Positions 4,128 through 63,520 of a stretch of 64,000 nucleotides of DNA are shown here, piece by piece. Positions within the stretch are counted from its first letter, which is position 1. Each line of letters starts with the position of its first letter. The notes under the pieces are model-generated. The model saw nothing but the letters and a program-made list of their open reading frames with translations, had not been told where the DNA came from and made no database searches. The DNA lies in NCBI GenBank assembly GCA_964016885.1, contig OZ024740.1, forward strand, positions 41,354,001 to 41,418,000, read 5' to 3'. The position numbers and the translations under genes are program-made. This DNA is from Eledone cirrhosa (lineage: Eukaryota).

Positions 4128-4525
4128 GTTGTGTATAATGGTAGCTATGGTGCTTCCATAGGCGGTATGCCAAAATTAGCACTCGATATTCAGCAGAGTA
4201 GAGTGTGGATAGTATAAAGAAAACGAAAAATCAGTGATGCATCTGGACTTAATTTATTGCGTGTTACAATTGTTTCGCCGGCAGGTAACTCGAGACATGG
4301 TCCTTGTATGGATCTGGCTGATTCTGCTGCTGCTGGTTCTTTCAAACACAGGTATTTCGTTCGGAGCAAATTTTATCACGTGAAATACCTGAAAGAACCT
4401 GCAGCAGTAGAATCAGCCAGATCCATACAACGACCATGTCTCGAGCTACCTGCCGGCGAAACAATTGTAACACGCAATAAATTAAGTCCTGATGCATCAC
4501 CGATTTTTCGTTTTCTTTATACTAT
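4128..4525. mobile_element. Fold-back PLE pLTR insert: tail 4128-4208, inverted arms ~4209-4358 / ~4382-4525
   Basis: Arms are reverse complements with a few mismatches. Sense arm has GAAA-CAATTG-TA-acac then AATAAA. Flanked by (TA)n. Tail hairpin at 4178-4199. Confidence 0.8.
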
Positions 4526-4542
4526 ATATATATATATATATA

Positions 4543-4795
4543 TATCACAGAAAAAAGAGAATCAGTGTTGCGACGAAAGGAATTTATTGGACATATTACA
4601 ATTGTTTCTCGGGCGACCAGCTCGAGGCACCATCGATGTGGTGATCAAACCTGACTCTGAAATCGCGCGGTCCTCGGATACGTCTCGATTCTACGAAGCA
4701 GATATTTTTCTGTGATATCATACTCTGCTCTACGAGGGCATCGAGTGCTCATACGGCCTACTGCATACGTACGATTTAAGCATCCAACACCAATT
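4543..4795. mobile_element. Second PLE pLTR insert (sense arm on minus strand; short inverted arm plus tail on plus strand)
   Basis: Minus strand GAAACAATTGTA...AATAAA ends at (TA)n. Short inverted repeat atatcacagaaaaa / tttttctgtgatat. Tail hairpin at 4722-4749. Confidence 0.7.
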
Positions 4796-4989
4796 ATATA
4801 TATATATATATATATATATATATATATATATATATATATATATAGAGAGAGAGAGAGAGAGAGAATCATCGGCTACATTGCTTATCATGTTTTTTTTATC
4901 TTAGGTTTTGTTTCAAGGTACCCTGACAAACATATGATGGTCCAGGAAGTATCTTGAAGAAATTCTCTTATAATTTGTTTTGCCTTTAT

Positions 4990-5430
4990 ATTGATATCCT
5001 CATAAGCATTTCTATTATGTTGATATATTTTTTAATAAATTTTGTTACTTTGTTGATATCTTAATACACATTGCTATTATTTTGATATCTTTATAAACAT
5101 TGCTATAATGTTGATAATGTTGCTATGTTGTTGATATCTTAATAAGCATTGTTCTTATTGTTGATGTCTTAATAAGCATTGTTCTTATTGTTGATGTCTT
5201 AATAAGCATTGTTCTTATTGTTGATGTCTTAATAAGCATTGTTCTTATTGTTGATGTCTTAATAAGCATTGCTATAATGTTGATATCTTAATAAACATTG
5301 TTGTTATCGCTGATATCTTAATAAAAATTGCTATTATTGTTGATATCTCCATAAACATGTTGCTGACGTTTTCATAAACATTGCTACTATATTGATATAT
5401 TCATAAACATTGTTGTTATGGTTGATGCTT
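4990..5430. repeat. ~30-bp minisatellite (gttgatgtcttaataagcattgttcttatt)
   Basis: Several exact 30-bp units at ~5140-5270 with degenerate units on both sides. Confidence 0.9.
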
Positions 5431-59563: not shown

Positions 59564-59601
59564 ATATATATATATATATATATATATATATATATATATA
59601 T

Positions 59602-62600
59602 ATTAATTCAAAATATGAACAAAATAGATATTCTTGTGATCAAGTATATTTTATTATACATATTTCAGAGGTACTGAGTTAACTTCAACATTACGTCCTC
59701 ATCAGATAAAATAAGATGATGCATGACATACCCTGACATAGTAGATGGTTAAGATTCAGTCATGGTAGTGAGTAATATATGACAAAACTCAATATTTATA
59801 TACCTTAATATTGAAAACATGAAAAAAACCCACATATAATACATATAATAGGGAGGGTGCGTGTGAGAAAGCTTAAAAGAATACATGGCAGCAATAAAAC
59901 TGTTAAAGATTCAAATAATTTAAATTACTGAAGAAAGAGGAAAGAAAAGAAAGGCATAGAGGAAGAAATAGATGAGGGGATAATATAGCTAGTAGGAGCC
60001 TAGAAAACAAAAGAGAGTTGATTACAGAGAGAGAGAGAGATAAAGAGGAATAACTTTTATAATGAAATAATATAGGGAGATATTAAATTAGAACAACATT
60101 TGGGCTTAGCTTTAGGAAAACGAAAAAATTCAATTCATTGAATTATTGAAATATCTAAAAATATTCATCAATCGGAATTTTAAATATAATTGGGTGTATT
60201 CATATCAAGGTTTATACCAAGTCTTTAGACAATTATCTATATATACAATATATATCCAAACATATCTATTTGACCGTTAAGATTCAAAACATTTAATTTA
60301 AGTTAGTTCAGAGTAATGAATAATATTTTAGGTTATAAAAGTTAATAAGTATCTGTATTAATATTAAAGTATACTATCATATTTAATTCATAAAATCAAA
60401 TTTTATGAAATCAAATTTAAAGGATTTACAAACACGAGAAAGAAAACATAATGTTTTTACAACCTCACGAAGGTAAACTTTACTAAATTTATTATATAAT
60501 ATTAAATTATTTATATTATATTGAAAATAGTTTATATTATATAATTTAGAAAATAATTACAGTTATAATTTTTAAAGAATATTAAGATTAACAATTAGAA
60601 TGCCTAAAGGATCAACAGGCCTTATAATTAAACTTAAAAAAAAAACTTGATCATTAAATTATATATATGCGTTTATCAAAAATATACACAAAGATAAGAT
60701 TGTCCAAAGACTTAAGATGATACCTCTCAATTAAACATAATCCAATACAATACAATAAATAAATAAGTTACTGAAAATATTGTTAAAATTAATGTTTTAG
60801 ATCAATTATTGTAATAGGATCATTTAATAGATATATACTATAAATATACAAGTCAAAACTTCATGAGTCCTAAGGATAAGGACTAGATTCAAAATAAAAA
60901 GTGAAAAAAGTAAAACTAATGAATTGTTTACGATCATAAAAGTGCCGAATATAAAAAAATATAGTTTAAAATGCAAGAGAGTTTTTATTTATATAGTAGA
61001 CTAACAACCCTTCTAAAGTGTCTACGAAGATGATATATAGAGAGAGTATTATAGGTATTAGTGAAACGATATACATATAATAAATAAATAAATAATTACA
61101 ATCATTATTAGTAATGTTATAATTGTAGTTTTACATCCAGTTCAGTGGAAAGAAAGACTAATATTTGTCGACTAGTATGATTTATGACATTTATACCTAA
61201 ATATATATAAAAAAATATATATGTACAAATCTAACTTTCTGAATCCCAAAACATACTCAAAATGAGTAAAATATATAAATACATGAATGATTTACGGTTC
61301 AATTATAACCGGTAATCTTACAAGTTATATATCCAGATTATATATTTAAAACAAAAACAAATATATAAGGATCCCAATCTAAATTATATATATCTAAAAT
61401 AATCCAAAGGTGTGCATATTCATCAAGAGAACAAGTTAACAAATAATATATTTATATACCTAAACAGGACCCTTCAGTCTAACATTAATTCTATCATAAA
61501 TGAATAGAAAATAAAATGTTTAAAGTTTTATAATCTGTTATAACATTTTAGGTACACAGTTGATAAGAGACGTCAAAAATTAAAACTTGTTTATTTAGTG
61601 CTTTTTCCTGACCTTTTGCGAGGCTTTGAATGTAGACAAAGCTTTATGAAGGCAGTTTGAGAATAATTCACTTTTTTTGTTAATTAAGTTTTCATAATTA
61701 GTAATTATTAATAGGGTCTCCATAGTACAGAGGTTGCAGTTAGGTGATATAGACGAATTCGAGTAGATTCTACTATTACATAGCTTCGTCCAAAAAAATC
61801 GAGTATTTAAAATTTTGTCTTTTAATGACCATATAAGTTGTGATAAAGAAGTCGAAGACTTCCTATTAGGATTCGGAAAAGAGCATTTGTGATTCCCAAA
61901 TCTCGATTTAAATGTCGAAGAAGTTGCCCCTATGTAGTTGTACGTGATGTTATTTGCTTTTACGGTGCATTTATACACCAGAGGGCAATCTGGTTTATTT
62001 CTACAATTACATTTCAATTTATTATTATTATAATTTATATTAACACTATTATTACTTCGAAATGTTCTATTGATAGTGCTTATATTGCTGTTAATGTTAT
62101 TCATAGTATTAATATTGTTAGTGTTATTATATTCATTATTGTTATAAGTATGCGGATTCTGGTTTAGAATTCTACTATTTAATTTAGCGATGTTTTGGGC
62201 CATATTTATAGTTGCAGAATAAGAAAGCTTAATTGTGTGTCTATTAAATATGAAACGGTATTTATGTTGAATAGGGAAGGAATTATCTAAAGCTTTAAAG
62301 AATAGATTAGCGAGTGGTGTTTTTATTGCTACAGGAACAGGGCGGGGGGGGGGGGACAAACCATATAACTGATTTAGTTCTGTTTTTTTTCCCTCCCCCG
62401 ATTTATTCACAGTATAGGTGTTTCAATTATAATTTTTAGAATTTCGTTTATACATGTCAGTCATATTATTATTTTTATCAGAATTAAGATTCAAATTATT
62501 ATTGCCTATATATTCTATATTATTTTTATAGCCTGCCTTTCTTAGCGCATCATTGCTTTTTCATCAAATATGGATTTATTAGCAGATATTCTAGTAATGC

Positions 62601-63345
62601 ATTTCTGTACACTATTGACAATTGCATTTTTCACAGATTTAGGATGATTAGAGTAATAACTAACGTAATTTAAGTTTTCATTGGGCTTATGGAAAGGGTA
62701 ATAAAAACCAGAGTTTAAGTTAAGGGTAACATCAAGGAAATTAACTATTTTAGTACCACTTTCAACCTCTAATTTAAGGTCGTAATTTTTAAAGATCTCA
62801 ATTATATTTTTCTTAACCCTATTTAGTTCTGTATTGTTGTGTTTGACAACCGTAAATAAAATATCGTCCCTCTATAAACCACCGGTAATCTCCGGCAGTT
62901 TTCTATTTACCATATTTAAGATGAAAATCCCCAGAAGATCCGTGACTTGAGCTGAGTCCGATGATCCCATGGTAATGTCAAAGTTTCTATTTCTATCCGA
63001 GCGGGTCCAATACTCATTGTTGAAATTAATTAGAGTTCTTCTAGCAGTTAATATGATATCGATTTCATCCGTAGTTAGATCTGTATGCTTGTAAGCGTAG
63101 GATAAAGCCTCATTTAATAGGTTAGGTGTAATGGAAGAGTAATAGCTTGCTATGTCCATTTGGATGAATTTGTGGTTTTTCTTATCATCTATATTTTTAA
63201 ACCAATCAATCACTTCATTGGTGTCCTTCCACAAGCTCAATTTAGACCTCAATTTCAGAATAGGTAGAATTCTATCAATAATATGGAAAACCATACTGTT
63301 GAGTGCTTCCAATCTATTGTAAAACTCATTTTTTGATTTATTCAT
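59602..63345 (-). mobile_element. 5'-truncated Naiad-like PLE with ~2-kb AT-rich 3'UTR
   Basis: RT DIASYY, FDITMGSSDSAQ, GL*RDD (TAG replaces Y of YRDD at 62872-62874), FLDVTL, SNHP; CNCR linker, YIGATSSTFKSRF, CNLC. Confidence 0.88.
59647..59713 (-). ncRNA. Type-I hammerhead ribozyme at the 3' end of the PLE
   Basis: tattttat-CTGATGA-GG...CT-GAAA-TATGTA-TA-ataaaata; 8-bp stem I. Confidence 0.75.
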
Positions 63346-63377
63346 TGAACCTTGTTTAACCTTTAAATATATATATA

Positions 63378-63520
63378 TACAATATATAAATAAATGGAAA
63401 CTATATTTATAAAACCATAATATATTGTGTATTTACTCCACTAATTTGTTGAGTGCTTTATATCAGTTATAAACATTTTTAAGCTTGTTGAATCCCCACA
63501 AATTAAATATAACCTCTGCA
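63378..63520. mobile_element. Miniature family D-related fold-back insert (~40-nt sense arm, ~8-nt inverted arm, full tail)
   Basis: aaataaatggaaactatatttataaaa matches the family D end; tail hairpin at 63435-63457. Confidence 0.7.

Follow-up and report, generated by a model that had tools for sequence, protein, structure and literature searches.

The closest described relatives of the elements examined here are the Hydra clade of Penelope-like elements (PLEs) and the Poseidon element PAc of Anolis. As far as the accessible text of Craig et al. (2021, PMC8557442) goes, the Hydra clade is diagnosed by a C-terminal GIY-YIG endonuclease and the motifs RWK/RWR, DKT, CxCX5C, CxxC and CxH, and its members have a hammerhead ribozyme near the 3' end; like our elements they show (TA)n targets and tail-bearing copies that are tandem or inverted. 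Endonuclease resolution is the explanation given there for the tail, and the word 'hairpin' does not occur in the main text. For PAc, the available portions of Frangieh et al. (2024, PMC11167929) report that the protein cuts and extends both target strands, that reverse transcriptase (RT) starts at two internal RNA sites bounding the tail, that RNA 3' of the main start is required and that a dimer is predicted. What was known beforehand comprises the clade itself, its tail and initiation at internal sites. We analysed a 64,000-nucleotide stretch of the 3.0-Gb genome of Eledone cirrhosa (contig OZ024740.1, positions 41,354,001 to 41,418,000; hereafter the window) that is dense in (TA)n-flanked retroelement fragments, and found that its Hydra-clade PLEs belong to families carrying a small hairpin motif twice, a few bases behind each of two alternative insertion ends. 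This is a real cis element that is likely undescribed so far: neither the literature (with most subscription journals uncovered) nor Rfam describes the motif, the fact that it is doubled or its pairing rule, and the main text of a preprint on retrozymes (bioRxiv 10.64898/2026.07.22.740005) has no such motif in its accessible part.

The motif, RCUC-Y…R-UN-GAGY-RCU, is ~20 nt long. An earlier note on this DNA had described one such hairpin past the integrated 3' ends and proposed that it positions RT; that reader saw half the system, and the second hairpin is not visible in the window. It emerges in read-through copies, where a hairpin of the same build stands just past the point at which tail-bearing copies end and before the AUG. 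Genome-wide, a two-hairpin pattern gave 863 matches versus 2 for the control. The second hairpin of one family, F3, was predicted before searching and was then found in 116 copies versus 0 in the control, 3-5 nt past the last TA match. From 5' to 3', the elements are laid out as predicted hammerhead, UA-rich site 1, first hairpin, tail, UA-rich site 2, second hairpin and AUG. The tail measures 53-102 nt here versus 30-40 nt in the accessible text of PMC8557442, and in most families the match to the open reading frame (ORF) begins 30-87 nt after the start of the second hairpin. Because the second hairpin stands at an equal distance behind the second 3' end, the proposal of a cis element that positions internal RT initiation is strengthened. 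Short tandem arrays (units of ~60-85 nt) of the first hairpin and its flanks occur at loci L240-L244 and L283. A chimera of the 5' half of the F2 hairpin and the 3' half of the F7 hairpin (L032 at ~3047 and L067 at 6799-6829, both on the minus strand) suggests a template switch at the common motif.

Matches to the motif far outnumber those in control sequence. The pattern ACTCY N5-35 RTNGAGTRC occurs 11 times in the window against a mean of 0.34 in 100 shuffles, none of which reached 11. A related pattern scanned across the genome gave 1259 matches versus 27 for its reversed control. With a covariance model derived partly from the window copies themselves, we obtained 13 window matches, among them 50660 and new ones at 47151 and 47757. 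In 464 kb chosen without regard to the motif (window included), there were 44 matches versus 7 for the reversed pattern; a microsatellite lay 35-70 nt downstream of 25 of the 44 versus none of the 7, the figure for random positions being 3.5%. The comparison with Rfam suggested in the note returned 0 matches in the window at gathering score, for the hammerhead as well.

Insertion ends fall into two discrete classes, as judged from copies anchored only on the upstream ribozyme region. We aligned 462 de-duplicated copies, of which 72 read through, 236 have clean microsatellite ends and 154 end otherwise; family F1c (927 rows) was excluded from junction counts because its reference contained a microsatellite. 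Nearly all clean junctions (222/236) lie 2-9 nt before a hairpin, 108 at the first and 114 at the second. Of 22 UA runs no more than 9 nt from a hairpin, 18 are used, accounting for 160 junctions, versus 4 of 81 runs farther away (7 junctions), many of these far runs being longer than the near ones; microhomology alone therefore does not set the ends. Pairing of arms follows an equally sharp rule. Both arms could be classed in 78 of 116 inverted pairs, and 75 of these use one end of each class, 3 use site 1 twice and 0 use site 2 twice, against 38.9 one-of-each pairs expected under independence (p = 2e-19). Such one-of-each use of the ends suggests a single complex acting at both hairpins. The window itself holds nine insertions with both arms found, always inverted and with one arm tail-bearing and the other tail-less. 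In these nine, by an eye count, the hairpin begins 4-9 nt past the last base shared with the tail-less arm, in keeping with the spacing first reported.

Two side features of the ends deserve mention. Inverted insertions of F2 mostly turn at almost one point, ~60 nt upstream of the first hairpin, which produces short palindromes (window 21512-21641, 36558-36688 and 39845-39971, and further F2 loci) and partly reflects a detection floor. A (CT)n or (CA)n run often separates the element end from (TA)n, mostly where the start-site template has CT or CA (window 21632-21728 and 57650-57710; L282, L286, L306, L042, L078 and L401-L419). Such runs could be two bases copied repeatedly at initiation, a telomerase-like slip that seeds microsatellites.

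Eighty hairpins gathered without a filter on the upper stem were used to count pairs. The first upper pair is kept in 78 of 80 (57 C-G, 21 U-A; 62 in shuffles), the second in 58 of 80 (34 in shuffles) and the third in 37 of 51 (19 in shuffles). A U-N bulge is present in 79/80, and in this set pairing did not exceed shuffles when the bulge was set to 0, 1 or 3 nt or moved to the 5' side. These hairpins agree with the original description of a covarying upper helix, a free loop length and a bulge on the 3' side. The basal helix had been called invariant, which does not hold: its first pair is G-C in 68, A-U in 10 and G-U in 2. First hairpins of the window mostly have A-U at this pair, and second hairpins, like those of other animals, have G-C. 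Pairing in the model alignment, where 53 of 116 rows are gapped at the first upper pair, reaches 98.4% versus 93.9% when shuffled, with 0 of 500 shuffles as high. On a quick protein tree built without named references or outgroup, the first upper pair of the first hairpin underwent at least 7 two-sided changes.

The carriers had been taken for about nine unrelated families. We instead found a Hydra-type ORF behind the hairpin region of every one of the nine window families with a read-through copy. In an alignment of 48 proteins, DK[TS] is present in 48, DKG in 0, RW[KR] in 44 and the CxCX5C linker in 41, and CxxC and CxH occur in 46 each around a conserved E and N; the linker, CxxC and CxH also occur in F7 and F8. 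With these diagnostic motifs in place, the families are relatives of one clade with diverged untranslated regions (UTRs). Loci L061 and L377 each hold a single ORF with RT followed by C-terminal GIY-YIG, whose Pfam match is weak (E 0.0056, below the curated cut-off). The insertion target is (TA)n, as in the Hydra clade, and the elements do not display the combination of N-terminal endonuclease, DKA and missing hammerhead that marks Naiad and Chlamys. Candidate hammerhead cores were recognized in window families F3, F4 and F6 and are absent from F2: no CUGANGA..GAAA core occurs in 19.8 kb around an F2 tandem array, where both hairpins and both ends are kept. The idea that F2 is non-autonomous was discarded, as it has an ORF. 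Its head-to-tail arrays consist of near-identical 3542-nt units with that ORF (L398 and L399, at G000:C1, ~91.47-91.50 Mb, and L087), and a unit with a 257-nt deletion is also found in tandem. A sequence search of the PDB retrieved no solved PLE protein, its best match being a retron RT (E 0.005). The predicted structure of a Hydra protein (mean predicted local distance difference test score, pLDDT, 91) has telomerase RT as its closest fold, and a homodimer prediction for residues 1-480, run without an alignment, scored 0.00, which speaks neither for nor against a dimer. No relatives were found among viral contigs.

The same arrangement extends to other animals. We retrieved foreign loci by protein similarity only, 78 from metagenomes and 9 from misbinned genomes. 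The motif stands upstream of the ORF in 34 of the 55 loci with enough flank, versus 4/55 on the other strand and 11/428 ORF-internal windows. The covariance model gave 149 matches in the 87 loci; 140 of them share the strand of the element, and a flanking match is present for 46 of 62 sequence clusters. Among 22 informative 3' ends, 17 lie 2-8 nt before a hairpin, several without long (TA)n (an eye count). The foreign layout is again predicted hammerhead, first hairpin, second hairpin and AUG. The two hairpins of a twin are separated by 53-83 nt (34 twins), and there is a putative ribozyme core 43-68 nt before the first hairpin in 24/24 twins, versus 22/1191 control windows. Long-range pairing of the two 3' AGYRCU segments, which appears in some folds, was rejected because it would put C-A mismatches into most foreign copies. 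Loci L229-L237 are Hydra-clade PLE contigs within metagenome-assembled genomes of bacteria; they are most likely misbinned pieces of host DNA.

Among published consensus sequences, the file of PMC8557442, inspected by eye, has the hairpin twice in Hydra-1_Ajap and once each in Hydra-2_Amil and Hydra-2_Ajap, the named hosts being a sea cucumber (two families) and a coral. A variant is present in Hydra-1_Crog and a degenerate form in Hydra-1_Obim, and the region is not covered in Hydra-1_Amil. A reach of the motif to Naiad is not supported: in the published consensus files of Naiad and Chlamys no sequence end carries it, and its 3' half appears 3 times only, internally, in a search that line-split motifs could escape. 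The anole element RNA printed in Fig. S1 of PMC11167929 has no RCUC..GAGY. A second, non-Hydra PLE with a C-terminal GIY-YIG and a CxxC linker is nested in the F7 element (L061:6883-9900, L396 and L078), and two copies of such a non-Hydra PLE from this genome, one tail-less and one with a ~60-nt tail, are likewise without RCUC..GAGY. The motif is clade-specific.

We propose, from the sequence evidence, that each hairpin is probably where RT docks and fixes its start 3-5 nt upstream, with one hairpin serving each nicked target strand. The RT-endonuclease protein would bind each hairpin within a read-through tandem transcript, and in a target that is AT-rich or (TA)n it would nick both strands. 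A nicked 3' end would pair with 2-6 nt of UA directly 5' of one hairpin and prime complementary DNA (cDNA) synthesis away from it, and the two cDNAs would join head to head, so that one arm is tail-less and the other tail-bearing. Since the start would lie outside and 5' of the hairpin, the hairpin would not be copied from its own start; the second hairpin would therefore be found only in read-through copies, and neither a telomerase-like RT stop nor an epsilon-like template would apply.

L1 twin priming likewise uses the two target strands as primers for cDNA on element RNA and leaves an inverted insertion; there the second priming is a chance internal event that yields two segments without overlap, whereas our elements have two fixed starts and overlapping arms. 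The hepadnaviral epsilon hosts a protein-primed start templated in its bulge, and the template boundary helix of telomerase stands 5' of the template and stops copying. The earlier note likened the hairpin to both. Each is a small RT-associated helix, and the fold predicted for the Hydra protein is closest to TERT, but the start is located 5' of the hairpin and not within it: ends map 2-9 nt away from it and join target DNA, unlike epsilon, and the hairpin is 3' of the start and the first one is copied through in tail-bearing arms, unlike a telomerase boundary. Diversity-generating retroelements resemble our elements in that structured RNA around the template positions internal initiation; they differ, according to the available text, in being primed by RNA in cis, in a large ribonucleoprotein with Avd, and in having a single start (bioRxiv 10.1101/2023.10.23.563531). 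For PAc, the accessible part of PMC11167929 places the starts inside an AC-rich stem-loop within the ORF, with no target homology and an undefined binding motif; those of our elements are in the 5' UTR, outside the hairpin, and use short UA homology. Inspection by eye shows a pair of similar GGC..GCC hairpins in the PAc RNA printed in Fig. S1 of that paper, an AC-rich stretch following each; they may be a twin motif of another kind, 5' of the starts.

Could the motif instead act as DNA? In that account, which we regard as unlikely, the GIY-YIG endonuclease recognizes it in cDNA or an element copy and cuts 3-5 nt upstream, the ends being resolution cuts. This would agree with the origin that Craig et al. 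gave the tail, with the requirement of Penelope endonuclease for the tail to cut a plasmid (as cited in the accessible text of PMC11167929), with the palindrome-like AGYRCT on the 3' side of the motif, with the weak bias of G-U over A-C, and with element pieces that start between -12 and +3 of the first hairpin (18, versus 4-7 in adjacent bins, partly from alignment drop-off). A covarying upper stem, a free loop length and a one-sided bulge, however, need a single strand; all four Y/R combinations are seen, so the palindrome is not conserved; and the tail ends of the anole element were shown to be RT starts on RNA (PMC11167929, in the part available). Slightly less probable again is that the hairpins are 5' UTR regulators, either a translational operator bound by the protein that the element encodes or a partner with which the hammerhead folds, while nearby UA microhomology sets the ends. 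The nearness of the second hairpin to the ORF start and the position of a predicted hammerhead core 43-68 nt before the first hairpin in all 24 foreign twins would suit such a role, but UA runs distant from hairpins see little use even where they are longer, the one-of-each pairing is left unexplained and F2 has no hammerhead core. A second, regulatory role alongside RT positioning is compatible with these data. A random match, or an ancestral leftover without function, is very improbable: all carriers do come from one clade, but the window, genome-wide, two-hairpin and 464-kb counts rule out chance, elements whose proteins are 35-55% identical retain the motif with two-sided changes, and the covariation and spacing data already refute this account.

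Several observations weigh against RT positioning by paired hairpins. The 154 copies that end otherwise, mostly through subfamily divergence or short repeats, stand outside the count of 236 junctions, and the junction loci are a non-random sample. Families F5 and F8 have discrete tail ends without a canonical second hairpin, which is degenerate in F8 and different in F5; 16 of the 62 foreign clusters have no flanking match, many of them without flanks, and 5 of the 22 informative foreign ends lie elsewhere. The anole element initiates internally without RCUC..GAGY. Arm lengths show no bias (9 vs 7), and the 'symmetric' class in that comparison stems partly from self-alignment. On the tree, only 4 independent pairs are well supported (p = 0.125). 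The excess of G-U over A-C at upper-stem positions 2-4 is modest (15 vs 8), so sequence does not prove that the RNA strand is the active one. Folding is weak as well (z -2.4 to +1.4, both hairpins being in the best fold of ~3/14 regions), and with so unremarkable an energy the fold would need protein. Taken as a whole, the earlier interpretation keeps its positioning idea and loses the unrelatedness of the families, the reach to Naiad and the two analogies; it also missed the second hairpin.

Within the window, all 12 hairpins spelled out earlier, and those at 4178 and 63435, were confirmed in position and strand. Relatives are given by L-number. The F1a first hairpin in a tail-bearing arm (4178..4204, minus strand) has a tail-less partner ending at ~4525 (+) and a full-length relative, L363, with second hairpin and ORF; that of F1c (4722..4749, plus), followed by tail and (TA)n, has a relative, L362, with second hairpin and ORF as well. 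Three F2 first hairpins, all on the minus strand, lie at 21486..21512 (partner ending ~21633 (+), then (CT)n(TA)n; relatives L082 and L107), 36532..36558 (partner ~36679 (+)) and 39819..39845 (partner ~39965 (+)). Those of F3 lie on the minus strand at 25186..25208 (partner ~25586 (+)) and 41534..41555 (partner ~42832 (+)), and the former has a putative hammerhead core (CUGAUGA..GAAA) upstream at 25272..25314 (minus), with a mirror copy at 25486 (+). F4 has its first hairpin at 39043..39070 (minus), a candidate hammerhead core from 39177 (minus), a partner ending at ~39540 (+) and the relative L081. That of F5 (48752..48773, minus) belongs to the family with a non-canonical second hairpin. In F6, a predicted hammerhead core at 52656 and the first hairpin at 52763-52805 share the segment 52656..52805 (plus; relative L085).

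F7 has a long-looped first hairpin (52935..52987, minus) in an inverted tail-bearing arm (~52890-53618), a 5'-truncated, frameshifted Hydra-clade ORF (53897..55340, plus) comprising the RT end, CxCX5C linker and GIY-YIG, and a tail-less 3' end at ~57650; its full-length relative is L061. F8 has an atypical first hairpin with a G above the basal helix (58487..58509, minus), inverted pieces of a Hydra-clade ORF (58593..59295) and a tail-less partner ending at ~59563 (+). A truncated Hydra-clade ORF of F3b (61631..63285, minus; relatives L250 and L260) is followed by the 3' half of a first hairpin and a tail (~63290-63365, plus), and a variant F3 first hairpin at 63435..63457 (plus) precedes tail and (TA)n. 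Three further sites have no demonstrated tie to an ORF. A GCUC..GAGC-type hairpin at 47157..47186 (plus), with a second copy at 47763, had been overlooked. At 47995..48020 (minus), listed before as a full hairpin, only the 3' half is in register, followed by tail and (TA)n; the 5' half is out of register and the site is outside the 13 covariance-model matches. The variant reported at 50663 is present as a hairpin at 50660..50685 (minus; tail-less arm ending ~50880 (+)), with its first base altered and GAGC-ACU on its 3' side.

Other repeats share the window. Tandem, partly broken copies of L1/Tx1-like long interspersed nuclear elements with (TATC)n tails occupy 9293-21190 and 44523-45868, with a 1090-codon frame at 9293-12565. 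A repeat of ~200 nt resembling a short interspersed nuclear element is dispersed and in tandem at 3197, 37080, 40343-40722, 43212-44242, 46830, 49145 and 51100-51927.

PLEs are the closest mobile relatives of telomerase, and how they recognize their RNA and why one arm has a tail are open questions; the sole in vitro study of a PLE, in its accessible text, left the binding site somewhere in a long stretch. A defined motif of ~20 nt, a fixed spacing, natural compensatory variants, natural exceptions and the one-of-each rule are now available, and with them the mechanism can be put to a direct test. In annotation, the motif shows exactly where elements begin or end, and it could act as a minimal template tag for RNA-templated insertion. 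More broadly, it is conceivable, at somewhat less than even chances, that the Hydra clade carries out programmed twin priming, in which two identical 20-nt tags per transcript engage one RT each on one target strand each and the tag is portable to any RNA. If so, a tag placed a few bases behind UAU would make an RNA a template for (TA)n insertion without being left in the product, and programmed twin priming would explain the PLE tail and inverted repeats in one step.

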